A model generated the notes under the pieces. It worked only from the letters and a program-made list of their open reading frames with translations. It was not told the origin of the DNA and did no database searches. Below, piece after piece: positions 1,870 to 43,089 of a DNA stretch of 64,000 nt. Origin of the DNA: Parcubacteria bacterium C7867-007 (GTDB lineage: Bacteria; Patescibacteriota; Minisyncoccia; Phycocordibacterales; Phycocordibacteraceae); NCBI GenBank assembly GCA_001189195.1, contig LFCQ01000002.1, forward strand, positions 68,997 to 132,996, in the 5' to 3' direction. Position 1 is the first letter of the stretch; each line of letters opens with the position of its first letter. Made by a program: the position numbers and the translations under genes.

Positions 1870-2395
1870 TCGTTACCACCTCCTGTACATCTTCGTGGTC
1901 GTCAAGCAATTGAAGAATCTGAGTGAACTTTGTTTCGTCCTCACCCGCAACATCCATTAGTGGTTCGTTTGGGGTATATCGACCGGTAGGGGATTTGGTG
2001 AACGCCCACAGCGCACTCCCCGGGGTACCGAGTTCGTAGCCATTCTTTGAAAGGAGATGTTTCACTTCCTGCGTGGTGCGGTTCTTGTTATCTGTAAGTG
2101 CGGAGACAATAAGGGCAGAGCCTCCTGGTCCATAGAATTCATATGAGACTGCATCCAACTCACCCGCATCCTTCGAGTTACCCTTAGCAACTGCACGCTC
2201 AATTGTGTCCTTTGGCATATTTGCTGCTTTGGCCCGATCGATAGCTGCAATAAGGCCTGGTGCAGAAAGATTCCCGTTAGCTTTCTTAGACTCAATGGTT
2301 ATAAACTTCCCAAGACGTGAGAAGGTTCGTGACTTCGCCGCATCGGCTGCACCCTTCTGGTGCTTAATTTGAGACCATTTACTGTGTCCTGACAT
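1838..2395 (-). CDS. yebC: YebC/PmpR-family probable transcriptional regulator
   Basis: MSGHSKWSQIKHQKGAADAAKS... is the hallmark N-terminus of the YebC family; lies upstream of ruvC. Confidence 0.85.
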   Translation of the reverse strand: MSGHSKWSQIKHQKGAADAAKSRTFSRLGKFITIESKKANGNLSAPGLIAAIDRAKAANMPKDTIERAVAKGNSKDAGELDAVSYEFYGPGGSALIVSALTDNKNRTTQEVKHLLSKNGYELGTPGSALWAFTKSPTGRYTPNEPLMDVAGEDETKFTQILQLLDDHEDVQEVVTNARGYESTEE

Positions 2396-2530
2396 GTAGT
2401 AACTATAGCAAAATAGGATGAACAGCCCAAAGTTCGATCCCTAGTCTCCCAGCACTCAACTTGTATAAAAGAAAGCCCTCGGCACTGGGATGAAACCAGA
2501 TACCGAGGGCACGCAGGACTAGATCCTGGT

Positions 2531-2665
2531 CTAGATTTTCGTCCCGCCGTCGCCGAGAGAGGAGGTGCCATCGTCACCGATGATGAGCGAACCTCCGTCG
2601 TGGATGCCGTCGCTGCCACCGTCTCCGATACCAGCCGAGCCTCCGTCGCCAATGCCCTGATTCAT
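2531..2665 (-). CDS. 44-aa Gly/Asp-rich peptide with five tandem 8-residue repeats (IGDGGSxx): MNQGIGDGGSAGIGDGGSDGIHDGGSLIIGDDGTSSLGDGGTKI
   Basis: Open frame with RBS AAAGGA 8 nt upstream; stem-loops downstream (2470-2525); local GC about 62%; the 117-aa ORF listed at 2299..2652 in the track is a different frame and looks spurious. Confidence 0.45.
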   Translation of the reverse strand: MNQGIGDGGSAGIGDGGSDGIHDGGSLIIGDDGTSSLGDGGTKI

Positions 2666-2725
2666 CGAGCTAGCGATCCTTTCTGCCACTCAAATGCGGC
2701 AGAATCAAAATAGCATGGAAATCCG

Positions 2726-2753
2726 GGTTCCAACATCGTCCCAGACTGCCAGC
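2726..2753 (+). repeat. Conserved 28-nt element, copy 1 (GGTTCCAACATCGTCCCAGACTGCCAGC)
   Basis: Exact match to the consensus; lies about 60 nt upstream of the peptide gene on the opposite strand. Confidence 0.8.
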
Positions 2754-2810
2754 AAATAAGAGAAGCCGTCCTCCAACGGTTCTCCGGTAGGAGATGGGGA
2801 CGGCTTGGTG

Positions 2811-3083
2811 CTAGCGTCGATGAATCTGAAGTCGGCGATTAGGCCATAGTAAGGCGCGATTACGTGTATCCATATCTGCAACCACGAATCGAAGGCTTGC
2901 TCCAGAAATGCGCCTGTTTATGCTAACGATCGTAAAACCCTGCGGGTAGTTGCCGTCTGCTGCATGCATATTCCGGACCTCTACCGGTTCGTTATGGTTT
3001 GCTCGCAGTGTAGTGATGACATCCGACCTGCCCTGCATCCGCTCGAGTTGCGACCACTCTTCGTCGGTGAGATGGTGAAGCAT
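2811..3083 (-). CDS. Hypothetical protein (90 aa)
   Basis: ORF with RBS GGGAGGA 7 nt before the ATG; hairpin (aagccgtcc...ggacggctt) immediately downstream at 2760-2800. Confidence 0.5.
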   Translation of the reverse strand: MLHHLTDEEWSQLERMQGRSDVITTLRANHNEPVEVRNMHAADGNYPQGFTIVSINRRISGASLRFVVADMDTRNRALLWPNRRLQIHRR

Positions 3084-3131
3084 GGTTCATCCTCCCGTTG
3101 ATCTGACAGCACCCTAACATAGCTGCAAAAA

Positions 3132-3159
3132 GGTTCCAACATCGTCCCAGACTGCCAGC
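3132..3159 (+). repeat. Conserved 28-nt element, copy 2
   Basis: Exact consensus. Confidence 0.8.
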
Positions 3160-3242
3160 AATAAAGCGAAAACCCTTCTCTTAATTATTGCCGTAGCAGT
3201 AATTAAGAGAAGGGTTTTGTGTGGGTTGTACGAATTCAATTT

Positions 3243-3503
3243 TTACTCTGATACTTGCAGTAGTTTTTGTGCGATTCGAACTGCAGTATCGTAACGAACG
3301 TATGCGCCGAGCAAGGTATCAACTAGTAGATTCGACGAATCACTCGTTACACCCTCTTCAATGTGCGCTGTGCATCTCTGAAGGGCTGAATCTAGGAAGT
3401 CTCGAGCAAAATGCGATTTCTCGTCTCGAGAGCCATCGCGCACATAGCGCGGCAGACTATCTATAACTTCTTCTAGAGCTTCATCGTAAAGAAGGGTAAT
3501 CAT
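3243..3503 (-). CDS. Hypothetical protein (86 aa, acidic and helical)
   Basis: ORF with RBS AGAAGGA; terminator-like hairpin downstream (3168-3215); TTGACA then a TATATAAAA box upstream. Confidence 0.5.
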   Translation of the reverse strand: MITLLYDEALEEVIDSLPRYVRDGSRDEKSHFARDFLDSALQRCTAHIEEGVTSDSSNLLVDTLLGAYVRYDTAVRIAQKLLQVSE

Positions 3504-3579
3504 CTATTAGTCCTTCTGGAAGTGAACGGGCTTACGCTTATATTTAAGCATTTTATATAAATTCTGTCAATAGTACCCT

Positions 3580-3607
3580 GGTTCCAGCATCGTCCCAGAC
3601 TGCCAGC
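3580..3607 (+). repeat. Conserved 28-nt element, copy 3 (one mismatch: CCAGC for CCAAC)
   Basis: 27/28 match to consensus; followed on the minus strand by TTGACAGAATTTATATAAAA. Confidence 0.8.
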
Positions 3608-3665
3608 TATATAAAACGAAATCGCCTAACAGGGTCAGGCGACTCCGGTAGGCGATGGTTTAATT

Positions 3666-4097
3666 CTATATTTTAGAAACAACGTGAACTCGCTTGAAGT
3701 TTTCGGCTGCTCGTTTCAGTTCAGGAGTAGGTGCTTTGCTGATCAAGATTCTGAGGCTTCGTGTGCCGATTGGACGACCGTCCAACCATCCATAGAGACT
3801 GGACCTGCTGAAGCCAAGCTGTCTGGCTGCCGTTCGGCCGTCATTGAAGTGGTGCATGTAGGCTTGGACCAGCTCCTTCAGTGCGACCTCGTAGTCAGTC
3901 GCACAGGTGAGGACTTGTGTACGTGGTTTCAGGCTGAGATCGATGCGGATGAGGAAGGCGTCTTTTTCGGACACATGCCTCGCAAACTCATCAATCCGCT
4001 GCTTGATTTCCTCAATCGAGCCCACGTCATCAGCGGTCAGTGACAGAGCCATACTCTTTGTGTCGTCAACAACTTGCAATGCCATTTGCGGCTCCAC
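3666..4097 (-). CDS. Small DNA-binding protein with a C-terminal Fis/NtrC-type helix-turn-helix (TAARQLGFSRSSLYGWL)
   Basis: The HTH signature is read directly from the translation; the overlapping plus-strand ORF at 3684..4043 has poor composition; terminator hairpin downstream at 3620-3660. Confidence 0.6.
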   Translation of the reverse strand: MEPQMALQVVDDTKSMALSLTADDVGSIEEIKQRIDEFARHVSEKDAFLIRIDLSLKPRTQVLTCATDYEVALKELVQAYMHHFNDGRTAARQLGFSRSSLYGWLDGRPIGTRSLRILISKAPTPELKRAAENFKRVHVVSKI

Positions 4098-4150
4098 AGA
4101 ATGAATCTTGTTTCTTTATGTACTATTTATATAGATTTGTCAAATACAAA

Positions 4151-4178
4151 GGTTCCAACATCGTCCCAGACTGCCAGC
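4151..4178 (+). repeat. Conserved 28-nt element, copy 4
   Basis: Exact consensus; followed on the minus strand by TTGACAAATCTATATAAAT. Confidence 0.8.
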
Positions 4179-4189
4179 ACTTTTTAGGT

Positions 4190-4495
4190 ACAAAAAAGAA
4201 AAGCCGCGACTGGGTGGGTCGTCGGCTTGTAGTTCTTCATGGCTGCTGTTTCAACCCGGCAGTGGTTCCTTGAAGGATTCGGCTTTATAACTCGCCGTAA
4301 GTATCTCTCCTGTGTCAGGCGTTACCCTAACTGCTCGGAATAGTGAGGTGATCTCTAAAGCGGAGACGTCGCCTTATGAGGCCTCAAAACCCCTAAGTTC
4401 TATGGAATTCCTTCCACAAGAGTGAGCCTGCAACCAGGCGCTCTCTACAAGGTTCGAACTAGCCGTAGCTCCCTGTATGAGAAAACCTTATCACG
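4190..4495 (-). ncRNA. Candidate roughly 300-nt non-coding RNA of unknown class
   Basis: Minus-strand TTGACA at 4513-4508 then a TATACA box, the same promoter module as at copies 3 and 4; strong intrinsic terminator on the minus strand (AAGCCGACGACCCACCCAGTCGCGGCTT + TTTCTTTTTT, plus-strand coordinates 4191-4231); no ORF longer than 18 codons in any minus frame; many internal palindromes (GUUCGAAC, GCCUGGUUGCAGGC, UGGAA-GGAA-UUCCA, GAGGCCUC, GACGUC). Confidence 0.45.
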
Positions 4496-4523
4496 GTGTG
4501 TATATTCTGTCAAGTGGCGGCCT

Positions 4524-4551
4524 GGTTCCAACATCGTCTCAGATTACCAGC
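4524..4551 (+). repeat. Conserved 28-nt element, copy 5 (GGTTCCAACATCGTCTCAGATTACCAGC, 4 mismatches)
   Basis: Sits between the leftward candidate-ncRNA promoter and the start of the next plus-strand gene. Confidence 0.7.
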
Positions 4552-4575
4552 CAGAAGTTACGCTATACTCACTCC

Positions 4576-4944
4576 ATGATGGAGCTCATTACTTCAATAC
4601 TTGTACTAATCGTATTGTTTTTAGGGATAATCGCAGGGCCCCTATTTCTCGGGGCTCTATTTGTAGATCAAGCTCTGCATAAAAAGCAGATACCAAGGGT
4701 ACACAAGTTAGGTGCCTTCCTCGTTGCTTTTGTGGTGATTACATCTGCAATTATTTTTGGAGTCTATGCGGTCCAAAAAACAGTACAACAATGTACGGAT
4801 CAGGGCAGTTACTTGGAGTTTAATGCTGACGGAGCTATACGCTATTCAAAGCGACTTAATCAGCTTCATTTACGCTGTCACACGAAAGACGGAACACTTT
4901 ATAAATTGAAACCTCTCATCGATCTTAAAGTTTATTCTGGATAA
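4576..4944 (+). CDS. Small two-TM membrane protein (122 aa)
   Basis: Hydrophobic helices LITSILVLIVLFLGIIAGPLFLGALFV and LGAFLVAFVVITSAIIFGVYAV; start chosen at the internal ATG 4576 after a TATACT box; the longer track ORF starting at 4477 runs through the repeat. Confidence 0.5.
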   Translation: MMELITSILVLIVLFLGIIAGPLFLGALFVDQALHKKQIPRVHKLGAFLVAFVVITSAIIFGVYAVQKTVQQCTDQGSYLEFNADGAIRYSKRLNQLHLRCHTKDGTLYKLKPLIDLKVYSG

Positions 4945-4950
4945 ATATCT

Positions 4951-4977
4951 AGTTCCGACATCGTCCCAGGCTGTCGG
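4951..4977 (+). repeat. Conserved element, copy 6 (AGTTCCGACATCGTCCCAGGCTGTCGG, degenerate)
   Basis: Core ACATCGTCCCAG is conserved; a TTGACA-N17-GATAGT promoter and the RBS TAGGAG follow before the gene at 5100. Confidence 0.6.
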
Positions 4978-5099
4978 TAAAGTAGGGTGCAAATACATTT
5001 TATGAAATTGACAAGACCAACTGAGAAGTAGATAGTTCACGCGGAGTACAGTACTGGTCCAGCGTTAAACGGACCGAGCAACAGCGTTAGGAGCTAGCT

Positions 5100-5711
5100 A
5101 TGTCAGACTTTCCAAGTGCTCTTGAGCTTTTCGAACAGTTCAGGCCTCGTTTCGAACGAATCGAGCTTCGACCGATTGGGTGGTTGAGTCAGGACTACAA
5201 ACAGGTGCAGCTTTACGGGCTGCTCAACTACCGAGCAGGCAAAGAGGTGAAGTGGCATGACCGCTACACTTGCTCATTTGTCGATATAAAGGAGTCTGGT
5301 TTGCAGGTCACATTCACCTACGACCCCTCTTCTGAAGCCGACATCTTGAGTCAGTTCAGCAAAGCAGTCGCTCACCAAGTCACTGCTATGCTCTCTGGCC
5401 GCATTTTCCGACTTGCGCCTGCAGAGCCTTTTGAATGCCTTGTCGACGAGCATGGTCGGGAAGTCTCTCGACGACTGAATGTGGAATTGATCGGAGATCC
5501 GCTCCCGGGTCTCAGTCTGTACAACAGTGGATACAACACCGGCGAGTCCGGTTACTGGGATAGTTTTGTTCCGCGCGGCACACCTGAGGCTGAGGCGATT
5601 CAAGCTGCACTTACCTACCACTACAAGCAGTCGCTTAAAGCACGAGACGTCGCGACTGAACAGCAGGAAGCCAAAGTCCGTCTCGAAAAAGCACTAGTTC
5701 AGATTGCGTAA
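5100..5711 (+). CDS. Hypothetical cytoplasmic protein (203 aa)
   Basis: ORF with RBS TAGGAGCTAGCT before the ATG; no family recognised. Confidence 0.55.
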   Translation: MSDFPSALELFEQFRPRFERIELRPIGWLSQDYKQVQLYGLLNYRAGKEVKWHDRYTCSFVDIKESGLQVTFTYDPSSEADILSQFSKAVAHQVTAMLSGRIFRLAPAEPFECLVDEHGREVSRRLNVELIGDPLPGLSLYNSGYNTGESGYWDSFVPRGTPEAEAIQAALTYHYKQSLKARDVATEQQEAKVRLEKALVQIA

Positions 5712-5770
5712 GATCGATGGATCAGCCCCGGTAGAAATACCGGGGTACCTCTTTTAGTAGGTGCTTAGAT

Positions 5771-5790
5771 TAGAACATCGTCCCAGACTA
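5771..5790 (+). repeat. Conserved element, copy 7 (TAGAACATCGTCCCAGACTA, partial core)
   Basis: 17-nt core conserved; its 3' end runs into TACAAT about 45 nt upstream of the gene at 5840. Confidence 0.55.
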
Positions 5791-5839
5791 CAATTTCTTT
5801 TAAACTCACGAACAAAGTGCTGAATGGTACACTTTCACT

Positions 5840-6064
5840 ATGAAAAAACGTACCCCACTTGCAACCATGCGTTATGTAGCAAAGAACCTCCTTATCGTAG
5901 TTGGACTTGTGTTGATATGGCGTGGTATTTGGTACGTGCTTGATGGTATCGATCTCATGATCTTCGATGGGTCACATTTCTGGACCGGTCTATTTGGGAT
6001 AATAGTTGGACTAGCCATTCTTTATCTTCCGGACAACGACCTAAAAGAGATTGAGAAGCTTTAA
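5840..6064 (+). CDS. Small two-TM membrane protein (74 aa)
   Basis: LLIVVGLVLIWRGIWYVL and GLFGIIVGLAILYL hydrophobic segments. Confidence 0.5.
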   Translation: MKKRTPLATMRYVAKNLLIVVGLVLIWRGIWYVLDGIDLMIFDGSHFWTGLFGIIVGLAILYLPDNDLKEIEKL

Positions 6065-6115
6065 TTAGCTCCTTAGAAGTAGCAGGGGAGCGGACAGATC
6101 ACCAATACCTGATTG

Positions 6116-7108
6116 TTATCCCTGCAAATAGTCTTTTCCTTTCTGCGTAAGGATACGGCCACGAGAAGATCGCTCGATAAACCCAAGTCGTAGGAGGTAT
6201 GGCTCATACAAGTTTTCAACCGTATCACCATCCTCGTGTAGGGCGCTTGCGAGAGCACGCACACCTGCAGGACCTCCTTTAAACGAATCACGTAGTGTTT
6301 CAAGATAGCGGCGGTCGTCCTTAGTGAGACCAAGAGTGTCGATACCAAACAGAGCACACGCCTTATCACACACTGCAGCAGTGAGGGGCAGATTATGTAC
6401 TTGTGCGTAATCACGTACACGCTTAAGTAGAGCATTTGCAACACGTGGAGTCGCACGACTACGTGCCGCGATCTTTTCTACAACAGCGTCATCAACTTCC
6501 ATTGCAAGAAGGGAAGCAGAGCGCGCAACAATTGCACGAAGGTCTGCATCAGAATAGAAATCGAGTTGATACACACCACCACCAAAGCGTGAGCGCAATG
6601 GTCCTGAAAGTTGCGCAACGCGTGTGGTTGCTCCAACGAGAGTGAAAGGAGGAAGTGATAACTCCACGGTACGAGCACTGGGACCCTTCCCAAGAATGAT
6701 ATCTAGAGACCCAGATTCAAGTGCTGGATAAAGAAGTTCTTCAATCTTGCTAGAGAGCTGATGAATTTCATCTATGAAAAGCACCGTACCTGGTTCAAGG
6801 TTTGTGAGAATGGAGGCAAGATCTCCGGCACGTTCAATTGCAACGCCAGAGGTTGTTTTAACCGGAGCTTCAAGAGATTTGCCAATAAGGTGTGCGAGTG
6901 TGGTCTTACCAACGCCAGGTGGACCGTAAAAGAGAATATGCTCTGGCATATCCCCGCGCATCTTTGCAGCCTCTAAAACGATGTGTACATTATCCTTCAC
7001 GTGCCCCTGACCCACATATTCATCCCATACGGAAGGGCGAAGAGCCGCATCCAATGCCTGATCGCGCAGCTTGATAGGGAGGTCGGTATCGTTAGGAGTA
7101 CTTGACAT
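6116..7108 (-). CDS. ruvB: Holliday-junction branch-migration helicase RuvB
   Basis: Walker A GPPGVGKTTLA, Walker B LFIDEIHQL, sensor residues and a winged-helix C-terminus; start set at MSSTPND. Confidence 0.92.
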   Translation of the reverse strand: MSSTPNDTDLPIKLRDQALDAALRPSVWDEYVGQGHVKDNVHIVLEAAKMRGDMPEHILFYGPPGVGKTTLAHLIGKSLEAPVKTTSGVAIERAGDLASILTNLEPGTVLFIDEIHQLSSKIEELLYPALESGSLDIILGKGPSARTVELSLPPFTLVGATTRVAQLSGPLRSRFGGGVYQLDFYSDADLRAIVARSASLLAMEVDDAVVEKIAARSRATPRVANALLKRVRDYAQVHNLPLTAAVCDKACALFGIDTLGLTKDDRRYLETLRDSFKGGPAGVRALASALHEDGDTVENLYEPYLLRLGFIERSSRGRILTQKGKDYLQG

Positions 7109-7138
7109 AAAAACAGTGTGTGCTAGCATTGTATCACA

Positions 7139-7401: not shown

Positions 7402-7884
7402 TTGATTAGCACCCTATCGCTCTCGGGTATACTCCTACGCGTGATAAAACGATTCTTCGATTGGACACGACTTAAGCGTCAACTTGATCTCGTCAAAGAG
7501 AAAGAATTTTCCTTCAGCGAAGGACAAATATGGTGGTGCCACACTGGAGAAAATATTGGTCATGAGTTAAATGGAAAAGGGACAGGTTTTGCACGACCAG
7601 TTTTGATTTTGAAGAAGTATGACCAATATACATTTCTTGGATTACCTCTCACTACAAAAAATAAATTTGGAACCTGGTATGTTTCCTTGTATACAAAAGC
7701 TGGCTTAAGAACAGTGGTGCTTTCACAAGAGAGAACATTTGGCTATCGCCGCATGCAAAATAGGATTCAACACGTATCCAAAAGAGACGAAAATTATATT
7801 CGCACCATGTATCTCAAGCTACACAGTAAAAATCAACCCCGCACCATTACTGATGCGGGTCGCGGGGAGTCCCGAAATCCTTGA
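7402..7884 (+). CDS. MazF/PemK-family endoribonuclease-like protein with an N-terminal extension of about 38 aa; start codon uncertain (TTG 7402 or GTG 7441)
   Basis: EGQIWWCHTGENIGHELNGKGTGFARPVLILK ... LGLPLTTKNKFGTWYVSL ... VVLSQERTF follows the MazF/PemK pattern (GDIWxV...GsEqgG.RPavVls ... cvP.TT...g.pf.v.l...q); candidate sigma-70 promoter TTAGCA-N16-TATACT at 7404-7431; no cognate antitoxin ORF seen. Confidence 0.5.
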   Translation: MISTLSLSGILLRVIKRFFDWTRLKRQLDLVKEKEFSFSEGQIWWCHTGENIGHELNGKGTGFARPVLILKKYDQYTFLGLPLTTKNKFGTWYVSLYTKAGLRTVVLSQERTFGYRRMQNRIQHVSKRDENYIRTMYLKLHSKNQPRTITDAGRGESRNP

Positions 7885-39627: not shown

Positions 39628-42600
39628 ATGGCGGAAATGGAGAACGATGAAAAGAAGGTGTCTGAAGTAGCTGCTCGTGAAGAGGAAATCCTTGCGTACT
39701 GGAATGAGCAAAAGACTTTCAAGGCATCACTTGAGAAGCCATCACCAAGTGGTGAATATGTTTTCTATGATGGTCCTCCATTTGCAACAGGTCTCCCACA
39801 CCACGGCCACATTCTTGCCGGTACCATAAAGGATGCAATACCGCGTTATAAGACGATGCGTGGATTCCATGTACGCCGACGTTGGGGTTGGGACTCACAT
39901 GGTCTTCCTCTGGAGAACATCATTGAGAAAGAACTCGGTATAAAGACGAAGCGAGACATCGAAGAGATGGGTGTGTCTGTATTTAATGAAGCGGCACGTA
40001 GCGCGGTGCTTCGTTATGCCGATGAGTGGAAGCGCATCGTTCCCCGTATTGGACGCTGGGTGGACATGGAGGATGACTACAAAACCATGGACACTACATA
40101 CACAGAGTCGGTATGGTGGGCATTCAAGAAACTCTTTGATAAGGATCTTATAGAAGAAGGATTCAAGGTGATGCAGCTTTGTCCACGTTGTGGCACAACA
40201 CTTTCAAACTTTGAAGTGAGTCAGGGATACAAAGACATTAAAGATATAACTGCATATGCGAAGTTCGAGCTCGAAGATGAACCTGAGACCTACCTTCTTG
40301 CGTGGACCACAACGCCCTGGACTCTTCCAGGAAACATCGCGCTCGCGCTCGGTACTCAGATTGAATACGTAAAGGTTGAGAAGGGTGGCGCGCAGTACAT
40401 TCTTGCGAAGCCACTCGTTGAAAAAGTATTTGGTGAAGATCACGGAGAGGTAACCCCTGTTACTAAATCTGAGATCCTTGGACGGGTATATAAACCTGTC
40501 TTCCCAGGCGTTATGGATGCGCTTGCAGAAGGAAAGGAACGAGACAAGCTAGGTGCTGCATTCCGTGTGTATGAAGCAGACTTTGTAACGGCAGAAGATG
40601 GAACGGGTATCGTACATATTGCACCGGCATTTGGTGAAGATGATCTCAATCTCTCACGTGCACACGGGTTGCCAATTGTGCATCACGTAGATCGTGATGG
40701 TCGAATGATGAGTGCAGTGCCTGTGGTTGCAGGAAAGCTTGCAAAGCCTAAGGGGCAGTGGTGGGAGACCGATGCCCTCATTGTTGAATACCTTGGAGAG
40801 AAACTCTTTAAGACTGAAGAAAAAGTACACAGCTACCCACACTGTTGGCGCTGTGACACTCCACTCCTTAACTACGCATCAAGTTCGTGGTTCGTTCGTG
40901 TGCCAACTTTCAAGGACAAACTTGTTGCAGAGAACGATAAAGTTAAATGGGTGCCAGAAGCAATTGGAAAGAACCGTTTCGGTGACTGGCTAAACAATGC
41001 ACGAGACTGGGCAATTTCACGTAGTCGCTATTGGGGTGCACCTATTCCGGTATGGAAAAACGAGAAGACGGGAGCGCTCCGTGTGTTTGGTTCAGTCGAT
41101 GACATGAAGGGTCACGCAAAGAAAAGCGGTAACCGGTACTTCGTTATGCGTCATGCGGAAGGTGAACATAATATAAAAGGTATTGCTGCAAAGGGTGATG
41201 AGACCTTCCGTGCATCTCTAACAGAGACTGGTCGTGGACAAGCAGAAAAGAATGCATCAGCACTCATGCATGCAAACGTAACGCGCATCATTGCTTCACC
41301 GCTCACGCGTGGATGTGAAACCGCAGTGATTGTAAAAGAAACACTCGGGCTACAGGGTATTGAGATCATCCAAGACGAACGACTCCGTGAGTTTGATTTT
41401 GGAGAACTAGACGGCAAACCGATAGGGGAGTTTGTGAGATGGCGTGAGGTTAATACGTATGCGGACCGTATTCCCGGAGGCGAAAGCTATCAAGATGTTA
41501 AGAACCGTCTTGGTGCATTTCTCTACGATCTTGAACGTACGTATCAGAATGAAACAATTCTCATCGTTACGCACGGCGTAGGTATTGAAACAATCAATGC
41601 CGTTGCACAAGGAATAGATGCAGACGCGTCCAAGAAACTATCCGCAGAGATGGTGCCCTTGTATGCAACACCTATTGAACTGGATTTCACTCCGCTGCCA
41701 CACAACACAAACTATGAACTCGATCTCCATCGTCCATACATAGATGAGTATGCGCTCATAGATACTGATGGTGCTGCACTGCATCGTGTTGCTGATGTCT
41801 TCGACTGCTGGTTTGAGTCTGGTTCAATGTCTTATGCACAGGACCACTATCCATTTGAGAAAGATAATTTTAATCCTGAAAGTGGATTCCTTAAGAAATC
41901 AAAAGGATATCCTGCAGACTTTATTGCAGAGGGATTGGACCAGACACGTGGCTGGTTCTACTCAATGATTGTTCTTGGTACCGCGCTTTTTGGACATTCG
42001 CCGTACAAGCACGTGATCGTTAACGGACTGATTCTTGCGGAAGATGGAAGGAAGATGTCTAAGAGCCTGAAGAACTACCCAGAACCTATGGATGTGGTGG
42101 CTAAATATGGTGCAGATGCACTTCGTCTCTATCTCCTCTCCTCACCACTGATGCGCTCAGAAGACCTCCGATTCTCAGAGAAGGGAGTGGCGGATGTGGG
42201 TAACAAAATAATTGGACGCCTACACAATACTCTCGTGTTCTATCAGACGTATGCAATGAACGATGTGCCGGAAAGTGTTTCAAGTAATCATGTTCTTGAT
42301 CGATGGATCACTGCACGCCTTAAGGAGGTACGTGATGAAGTAACAAACGGACTTGAGTCGTATGAACTTGATCGTGCAGCACGCCCACTCGCGCTACTGG
42401 TTGATGATTTATCAACATGGTATTTGCGCCGCTCACGTGACCGCGTAAAAGATTCGGTTGAGGCTGCAGCGACCCTTCGTTCAGTACTGCGTACTTCTGC
42501 ACTACTCTTCGCACCGTTCGCACCGTTTTATGCAGAATATCTATGGAGTAAGATTCGTTTTGCTAAAGACCCTGAAAGCGTGCACCTTGCAGACTGGCCA

Positions 42601-43089
42601 GAAATGAAGGGCAAAGACGAGAAGGTGCTTCTAGAGGATATGGTACTTGTTCGTGAACTTGCCTCAGAAGCACTTAAACTTCGTCAGCAGGCTGGCATTG
42701 TTGTGCGTCAGCCACTGGCATCACTGAGTGCACCAACCATACCGCGCACCGCAGAGCTTATTGAGATTCTGAAGGAAGAGGTAAACGTTAAGGGTGTTCT
42801 AAAGAGGGAGGGAGAGATGTCTCTTGATACCGAGCTTACTGATGAACTAAAACGTGAAGGTGATGTACGTGCCTTTATGCGTGCACTTGCTGATGCACGC
42901 AAGGACATGAATCTATCACCAAAAGATGTGGTGCGAGTTGTTGCTGACCATGCCGCAAAAGATATGCTCACCGGTCTCAGCATTGCAGGACTTGCTGAGC
43001 TTTCATTCAGTGATTCAGTTGAAGGACCCTATACTGCCGAACTTTCTTCCACGGAGATAGGATTCACCGTTACACTCGATGCGGCATAA
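39628..43089 (+). CDS. ileS: Isoleucyl-tRNA synthetase carrying an inserted histidine-phosphatase (phosphoglycerate-mutase-like) domain
   Basis: HIGH (HHGHILAG) and KMSKS present, editing domain, WCISR-like DWAISRSRYWGAPIPVW; between that and LHRPYIDE...DVFDCWFESG lies a roughly 190-aa insert with RHAEGEHN, GRGQAE, SPLTRGCETA, REFDFGELDG and the catalytic THG. Confidence 0.9.
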   Translation: MAEMENDEKKVSEVAAREEEILAYWNEQKTFKASLEKPSPSGEYVFYDGPPFATGLPHHGHILAGTIKDAIPRYKTMRGFHVRRRWGWDSHGLPLENIIEKELGIKTKRDIEEMGVSVFNEAARSAVLRYADEWKRIVPRIGRWVDMEDDYKTMDTTYTESVWWAFKKLFDKDLIEEGFKVMQLCPRCGTTLSNFEVSQGYKDIKDITAYAKFELEDEPETYLLAWTTTPWTLPGNIALALGTQIEYVKVEKGGAQYILAKPLVEKVFGEDHGEVTPVTKSEILGRVYKPVFPGVMDALAEGKERDKLGAAFRVYEADFVTAEDGTGIVHIAPAFGEDDLNLSRAHGLPIVHHVDRDGRMMSAVPVVAGKLAKPKGQWWETDALIVEYLGEKLFKTEEKVHSYPHCWRCDTPLLNYASSSWFVRVPTFKDKLVAENDKVKWVPEAIGKNRFGDWLNNARDWAISRSRYWGAPIPVWKNEKTGALRVFGSVDDMKGHAKKSGNRYFVMRHAEGEHNIKGIAAKGDETFRASLTETGRGQAEKNASALMHANVTRIIASPLTRGCETAVIVKETLGLQGIEIIQDERLREFDFGELDGKPIGEFVRWREVNTYADRIPGGESYQDVKNRLGAFLYDLERTYQNETILIVTHGVGIETINAVAQGIDADASKKLSAEMVPLYATPIELDFTPLPHNTNYELDLHRPYIDEYALIDTDGAALHRVADVFDCWFESGSMSYAQDHYPFEKDNFNPESGFLKKSKGYPADFIAEGLDQTRGWFYSMIVLGTALFGHSPYKHVIVNGLILAEDGRKMSKSLKNYPEPMDVVAKYGADALRLYLLSSPLMRSEDLRFSEKGVADVGNKIIGRLHNTLVFYQTYAMNDVPESVSSNHVLDRWITARLKEVRDEVTNGLESYELDRAARPLALLVDDLSTWYLRRSRDRVKDSVEAAATLRSVLRTSALLFAPFAPFYAEYLWSKIRFAKDPESVHLADWPEMKGKDEKVLLEDMVLVRELASEALKLRQQAGIVVRQPLASLSAPTIPRTAELIEILKEEVNVKGVLKREGEMSLDTELTDELKREGDVRAFMRALADARKDMNLSPKDVVRVVADHAAKDMLTGLSIAGLAELSFSDSVEGPYTAELSSTEIGFTVTLDAA

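Follow-up and report, generated by a model that had tools for sequence, protein, structure and literature searches.

Cassette 4, the 345-nt interval between two repeat cores that is studied here, has a cassette-type layout without an open reading frame (ORF), and it is probably a stand-alone non-coding unit like the ORF-less cassettes of integrons, or else a dead cassette. Our preferred reading, which we place somewhat short of an even chance, is that of a small-RNA gene of ~285 nt, transcribed as a non-coding unit on its own and forming one cassette of a repeat-bounded array. The transcription of the unit, the ends of its RNA, and any function of that RNA are only what we infer from the sequence. 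Cassette 4 lies in a window (the whole stretch of DNA that was analyzed, 64,000 nt) of Parcubacteria bacterium C7867-007, a tiny groundwater bacterium of the Candidate Phyla Radiation.

The window is chromosomal DNA of a Candidate Phyla Radiation bacterium and not of a phage. Its large ORFs encode PolA, class I aminoacyl-tRNA synthetases, FtsK, a PilB-type ATPase, RuvB, YebC, and RuvC; the closest relatives of RuvB are found in Paceibacteria/Parcubacteria MAGs, and six tRNA genes are scattered along the window (Rfam, ARAGORN). The sequence is 100% identical to a JGI contig (3300001199, locus L001) and to two Logan contigs, and a search for strain variants through the neighboring proteins led only to contigs with 100% identity, from two sample accessions. 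Elsewhere in the window, the plus strand carries at 39628-43089 a 1153-aa class I aminoacyl-tRNA synthetase of the IleRS/ValRS type, in which a complete histidine-phosphatase domain (PF00300, E = 2e-31) occupies residues 505-671, between matches to the tRNA-synt_1 catalytic domain. A PemK/MazF-like toxin gene (7402-7884, plus strand) is located between ruvB and pilB, a position that is kept in the closest relative, L004.

Seven same-orientation copies of the repeat GGTTCCAACATCGTCCCAGACTGCCAGC occur at 2725-5801 and none elsewhere in the window, against a chance expectation of 0.17. These copies divide a 3.7-kb insert (2396-6115) between yebC (1838-2395) and ruvB (6116-7129). In about 40 relatives the insert is missing and ruvB directly abuts yebC; other relatives hold unrelated inserts of 0.5-10 kb at this place, and the same repeat is present in several of these inserts (L004, L096, and L146). 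Insertions recur at the ruvB-yebC junction, which is a hot spot for them. On the minus strand, cassettes 1 to 3 each consist of repeat, promoter, small orphan ORF (90, 86, and 139 aa), and terminator, and plus-strand ORFs are present in cassettes 5 and 6 and in the unit past copy 7. Between repeat copy 1 and yebC, the minus strand also contains a 44-aa ORF for a repetitive Gly/Asp-rich peptide (MNQGIGDGGSAGIGDGGSDGIHDGG..., 2531-2665), which is a gene in the JGI annotation and is followed by a terminator-like hairpin. A listed ORF of 117 aa (2299-2652, minus strand) overlaps the start region of yebC; since its own-frame codon-usage score is negative, it is probably not a gene.

The features of cassette 4 and of its two neighbors, in window coordinates, are the following:

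3666-4085, minus strand: next cassette downstream, encoding the orphan 139-aa protein AB202_03160, with a weak helix-turn-helix match and its own promoter
4151-4178, plus strand: 28-nt repeat copy 4, the downstream boundary of cassette 4, followed by the TTGACA of the next cassette (4143-4138, minus strand)
4192-4228, minus strand: intrinsic terminator, with a bulged 10-bp G+C-rich stem (4228-4201), a 7-nt loop, and then UUUUCUUUUUU
4192-4478, minus strand: predicted non-coding transcript of ~285 nt, its start at ~4478 inferred from the -10 and its 3' end in the U-run
4485-4493, minus strand: extended -10, TGaTAAGGT, after a 17-nt spacer, fitting TTGACA-N17-TAnnnT
4508-4513, minus strand: perfect -35 hexamer TTGACA, 10 nt past repeat copy 5
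4524-4551, plus strand: 28-nt repeat copy 5 (GGTTCCAACATCGTCTCAGATTACCAGC), the upstream boundary of cassette 4 when read on the minus strand
4576-4944, plus strand: divergent cassette, encoding a 122-aa orphan protein whose N-terminal half is hydrophobic and which probably spans the membrane

No homologue was found for the 139-aa protein. For the divergent neighbor, the public annotation gives a protein of 155 aa from the ATG at 4477 (4477-4944, plus strand), which reads through repeat copy 5; the ATG at 4576 (122 aa), located 5 nt downstream of a TATACT hexamer resembling a -10, is the more likely start, and the mRNA is possibly leaderless. Comparison of the island proteins with PHROGs, Pfam, PADLOC, and NCBIfam gave no significant match to defence or toxin proteins.

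The original prediction had attached a leftward promoter module to repeat copy 5, and a TTGACA is indeed located 10 nt beyond that repeat on the minus strand. The position of the module at the repeat stands, but not the ATACA proposed as its -10: the 17-nt spacer leads instead to TGaTAAGGT, with TAAGGT at 4490-4485 and the upstream TG at 4493-4492. Within the 64 kb, the pattern TTGACA-N16-18-TAnnnT occurs four times, against 1.8 expected. A strong minus-strand terminator had been claimed as well, and we find it at 4228-4192, where the hairpin AAGCCGACGACCCACCCAGUCGCGGCUU and its U-run reach -14.1 kcal/mol (z = -4.6). Its placement, just before the next repeat, is that of the terminators of cassettes 1 to 3, and ~250 nt without a usable ORF lie between it and the promoter.

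The 28-nt repeat is nearly invariant and non-palindromic (GCTGGCAGTCTGGGACGATGTTGGAACC on the minus strand), and many metagenome contigs of related Paceibacteria (L085-L176, L004, L006, and L012) contain arrays of ~500-nt cassettes with this repeat at the boundaries. A single metagenome scan with the repeat recovered 92 stretches (404 kb) with 230 unique copies, often arrayed, and across the related metagenomes it bounds hundreds of shuffled small-gene cassettes. The 144 inter-repeat cassettes have a median length of 501 nt and mixed ORF directions (77:67); 75% of them have an ORF that spans more than 68% of their length. With an ORF fraction of 0.32, cassette 4 is among the most ORF-poor when compared with these 144. 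The cassettes are modular: L126 115-421 and L134 941-1255 match at 83% exactly from repeat to repeat, within unrelated flanks, and L134 478-904 matches L132 5613-5188 at 68%.

Among the 202 unique metagenome copies of the repeat with adequate flanks, 37 are followed by TTGACA at 3-23 nt in the same sense, compared with 1, 3, and 9 at three control positions, and the full pattern TTGACA-N16-18-TAnnnT is present at 35 of the repeat copies. A separate tally places 32 of 34 full-pattern promoters ahead of a sense ORF that is 40 aa or longer, which suggests that the repeat-TTGACA module behaves as a real promoter. The predicted promoter of cassette 4 thus sits exactly where the repeat family appears to keep working promoters. 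A second promoter module was found in 24 of the 202 copies and in copy 2 of the window (3087-3165, upstream of the 90-aa ORF); there, the TTGGAA at the 3' end of the repeat is the apparent -35, followed by 17 nt, a conserved TGnTAGGTT extended -10, GTCCAGA, a ribosome-binding site, and ATG. With TTGGAA apparently serving as the -35, the repeat would double as part of a mobile promoter.

Cassette 4 is not the only short unit in which a TTGACA promoter next to the repeat is combined with an intrinsic terminator and no credible ORF is present. Others are found at L165 687-890 (175 nt), L127 1237-1493 (228 nt), and L124 245-450, and the L127 unit shares 71% identity with a portion of L132. None of them is related in sequence to cassette 4 or has an Rfam match, and their anatomy suggests a minor class of RNA cassettes. 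Two other candidates for such a class were discarded. A pair of ~250 nt (L126 117-392 and L134 943-1226) looked ORF-free and in fact encodes a conserved peptide of ~40 aa with a zinc-ribbon-like CPWC...C...C motif, 82% identical between two different arrays, so the lack of a long ORF cannot be equated with an RNA gene. The gene-free gap between two repeats at L001 16091-16452 holds an uncalled ORF for a 97-aa membrane protein.

In cassette 4, no minus-strand ORF longer than 18 codons had been predicted, and the longest ones in the putative transcript have 18 codons from ATG and 19 codons from TTG, neither with a Shine-Dalgarno sequence; no start codon preceded by such a sequence was found anywhere in the transcript, whereas the neighboring cassette genes have ribosome-binding sites of the GGAG type. 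Stop codons occur at approximately random density in all six frames. With 25 long genes of the window as the training set, codon usage gave a log-likelihood below zero for each of the six frames (best, -0.06), within the range of off-frame scores and under the 5th percentile (+0.09) of true in-frame chunks. For all six neighboring cassette ORFs, the true frame scores highest, at +0.05 to +0.45. A six-frame translation matched none of 5.8 billion proteins, and tblastx against 1.7 Mb of related loci returned only chance-level matches. No convincing protein-coding frame thus emerged, and the predicted anatomy of own promoter, own terminator, and no ORF is borne out by the recurrence of the repeat-TTGACA module together with the lack of a coding signature and of protein similarity. 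The non-coding reading is supported by these sequence properties. Nevertheless, the neighboring proteins are themselves orphans, so the missing protein match is also compatible with a fully decayed orphan gene.

The same cannot be said of the structural part of the prediction, which described the stretch as packed with palindromes and hairpins. All of the quoted palindromes are present, but their counts are those expected by chance: five 6-mer palindromes (genomic mean, 4.6), three 8-mer palindromes (mean, 1.1; three or more occur in 8% of genomic windows), and two perfect 5-bp hairpins (mean, 2.7). The predicted transcript folds at -96.9 kcal/mol (z = -3.05), and the effect is strand-specific, with z of -3.4 to -3.55 on the minus strand and about -1 to -1.2 on the plus strand. 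For the 269-nt core at 4232-4500, z is -2.57, a value reached by 29 of 212 equal-size windows (14%) across the 64 kb, where the background has a mean of -0.85 and a standard deviation of 1.6. The minimum-free-energy structure, which is multi-branched and not a rod, is unstable (ensemble frequency, 0.003), and the claimed GNRA hairpin forms in one predicted fold but is missing from the other. Given folding within the genomic background, this low ensemble frequency, and the inconstant hairpin, thermodynamics lends no real support to a dedicated structure, and the claim of a structured RNA is not upheld.

Neither did comparative searches add to it. With blastn and nhmmer, no homologue of cassette 4 was found in 80 syntenic ruvB loci or in the 92 repeat-bearing metagenome stretches (404 kb), and none by blastn in phage and plasmid collections; a weak match in L018 was set aside because it lies inside a penicillin-binding-protein gene, and the single 20-mer match from a scan of viral contigs (L084) was attributed to chance. 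Cassette 4 is therefore without conservation or covariation support across the loci and collections searched. No paralogue or complement of at least 12 nt was found within the window, and the duplex energies of the RNA with the 5' regions of the island genes and with the repeat fall within background; a guide or antisense RNA was rejected on these two grounds. The evidence for an RNA that is both structured and conserved is consequently weak, and a structured RNA of ~300 nt is unproven.

According to the small-RNA reading that we prefer, RNA polymerase would recognize the sigma-70-type promoter TTGACA-17-TGaTAAGGT, 10 nt from the boundary repeat, where neighboring and related cassettes hold their promoters, and would read leftward across ~250 nt without a translatable frame. 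Release would occur at the intrinsic terminator, which immediately precedes the next repeat; the downstream cassette would thereby be insulated and would use its own promoter, and the RNA might then act in trans through base-pairing or protein binding. We count in favor of this reading the parallel between the anatomy of cassette 4 and that of the protein-coding cassettes 1 to 3, the recurrence of the promoter module, the z-score of the terminator (-4.6), the negative codon scores, the missing Shine-Dalgarno sequences, the better fold of the minus strand, and the similar ORF-poor cassettes of related arrays. Against it we count the missing homologue, the ordinary fold z-score, the chance level of palindromes, the unstable structure, and the lack of complementarity above background.

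Several of these points fit a dead or neutral cassette, a former small orphan gene or a recombination accident that has kept its signals and whose transcript, if any, would be functionless. We consider this a serious possibility, with a probability of roughly one third. It agrees with a singleton that has no homologue, with folding and palindrome content that match the genomic background, with stop codons at near-random density in all frames, and with arrays that are highly dynamic and filled with orphan contents; the L126/L134 pair further illustrates that an ORF-poor cassette is not automatically an RNA gene. However, the body of the cassette would have had to decay completely and its signals not at all, given that promoter and terminator are intact and no coding trace is left, and the majority of the 144 cassettes do carry an ORF over most of their length.

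A promoter followed by a long untranslated stretch, a terminator, and then a gene also resembles the leader of a riboswitch or an attenuator. Cassette 4 could accordingly be the long 5' leader of the 139-aa gene, with the terminator at 4228-4192 read through conditionally, for example upon translation of the 18-codon ORF, which spans the terminator stem (ATG 4240-4238 to TAA 4186-4184). This arrangement is improbable: a TTGACA promoter of its own (4143-4138) precedes the 139-aa gene, a full repeat copy between terminator and gene places a cassette boundary between them, the 18-codon ORF is without a Shine-Dalgarno sequence, and Rfam gave no match to a riboswitch, a T-box, or a leader family.

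A very small protein of at most 20 residues, such as MKNYKPTTHPVAAFLFCT or the TTG-initiated LQAHSCGRNSIELRGFEAS, is highly improbable. ORFs of this kind do exist on the transcribed strand, and microprotein cassettes are known in related arrays, but each ORF takes up less than 20% of the transcript, none has a ribosome-binding site of the type seen in the neighboring cassette genes, and the codon score is negative in all frames.

Regarding known RNA families, a scan of the 64 kb with Rfam 15 at gathering scores gave no match at cassette 4 and only tRNAs elsewhere, and a permissive scan of 4050-4650 (E <= 10, permissive filters) gave no meaningful one. The collection includes riboswitches, ribozymes, OLE, GOLLD, ROOL, HEARO, raiA, and sRNA-Xcc1, and its sole match at E <= 10 was a trypanosomatid snoRNA model on the opposite strand, with 13.9 bits against a threshold of 45, which we consider meaningless. 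This all-family scan, which the original prediction had suggested as a check, thus found no fragment of a known element. ARAGORN detected six tRNAs and no tmRNA; for RNase P RNA (type A or B), there is no covariance-model match and the CR-I/CR-V motifs (GGAAAGUCC..., ACAGAA...CGGCUUA) are absent from the sequence; and 6S RNA and SRP RNA have no Rfam match at E <= 10, the multi-branched predicted fold also differing from the long rod of 6S RNA. The exclusion of tmRNA, RNase P RNA, and SRP RNA, first proposed from motifs, agrees with these covariance-model scans and with ARAGORN. RNAs of Patescibacteria can be divergent. Still, a highly diverged housekeeping RNA (RNase P RNA, tmRNA, 6S RNA, or long SRP RNA), which that divergence and a size of ~285 nt would allow, is effectively refuted by the empty scans, including Rfam at E <= 10 on 600 nt, by the strain-specific island, absent from ~40 relatives, and by the lack of anything similar in the ruvB loci of relatives, where an essential RNA should be conserved.

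Among known systems, the ORF-less gene cassette of integrons appears to be the nearest functional analogue of cassette 4. Some ORF-less integron cassettes encode regulatory RNAs, such as the trans-acting sRNA-Xcc1 of Xanthomonas, and others supply promoters (PMC6557892). The likeness consists of an ORF-free unit among many small, mostly orphan cassettes that are separated by same-orientation repeats, and of cassettes that are modular and occur in differing array contexts. The differences are considerable. The boundary is a 28-nt non-palindromic repeat, whereas attC sites are hairpins of 57-141 nt (R''-L''...L'-R'), and by inspection, the variable flanks of the repeat hold no matching inverted partner that would complete an attC-like palindrome. 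The cassettes described here usually have their own promoter and terminator, with ORFs in both directions; no Rfam family matches at E <= 10, although sRNA-Xcc1 would be included; and no integrase was found beside the arrays among the Pfam families listed. Membership in the integron family is not supported, and only the modularity of the cassettes is shared.

In anatomy, size, and absence of an ORF, cassette 4 also resembles the genes of trans-acting sRNAs, which have a sigma-70 promoter, 50-400 nt, and a Rho-independent terminator; a predicted promoter, a predicted Rho-independent terminator, and no translated ORF are the general marks of a bacterial sRNA gene, and all three are read from the sequence here. 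Cassette 4 differs from such genes in having neither conservation nor a predicted target, and in being located in a mobile cassette array instead of a core-genome intergenic region. A putative RNA gene beside a gene for a protein with a hydrophobic N-terminus (4576-4944), in an accessory region, further recalls type I and type III toxin-antitoxin RNAs. Unlike those antitoxins, however, the RNA of cassette 4 does not overlap the mRNA of its neighbor in antisense and has no tandem repeats, and the neighboring proteins match no toxin or defence model.

A broader interpretation would place the 4192-4478 RNA as one orphan member of a population of RNA genes, namely ORF-free cassettes with promoter and terminator that circulate in an undescribed integron-like cassette system of the Paceibacteria. 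This system would consist of ~500-nt modules whose 28-nt repeat carries or abuts a promoter, would occupy hot spots such as ruvB-yebC, and would be shuffled without a visible integrase. As a joint proposal we regard it as doubtful, at about one chance in four. No recombinase is enriched among 115 proteins flanking the arrays, whose neighbors are housekeeping genes, and no integrase or recombinase is present in the 25 commonest Pfam families of these proteins, in 25 of the 46 matched families listed for 42 further ORFs of the window, or in nine other large window ORFs that were scanned. In the searchable literature, we found nothing relevant on the repeat sequence or on cassette arrays in Patescibacteria.

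As an unconserved singleton, cassette 4 opens no question by itself. More notable is the surrounding array, in which a 28-nt repeat delimits shuffled mini-cassettes that are self-expressed, a pattern seen in many related genomes. If cassette 4 is transcribed and functional, it would join a very short list of candidate regulatory RNAs in the Patescibacteria, which are reduced and uncultivated, and it would mean that the cassette arrays of these bacteria carry RNA genes in addition to orphan protein genes, as integrons do.
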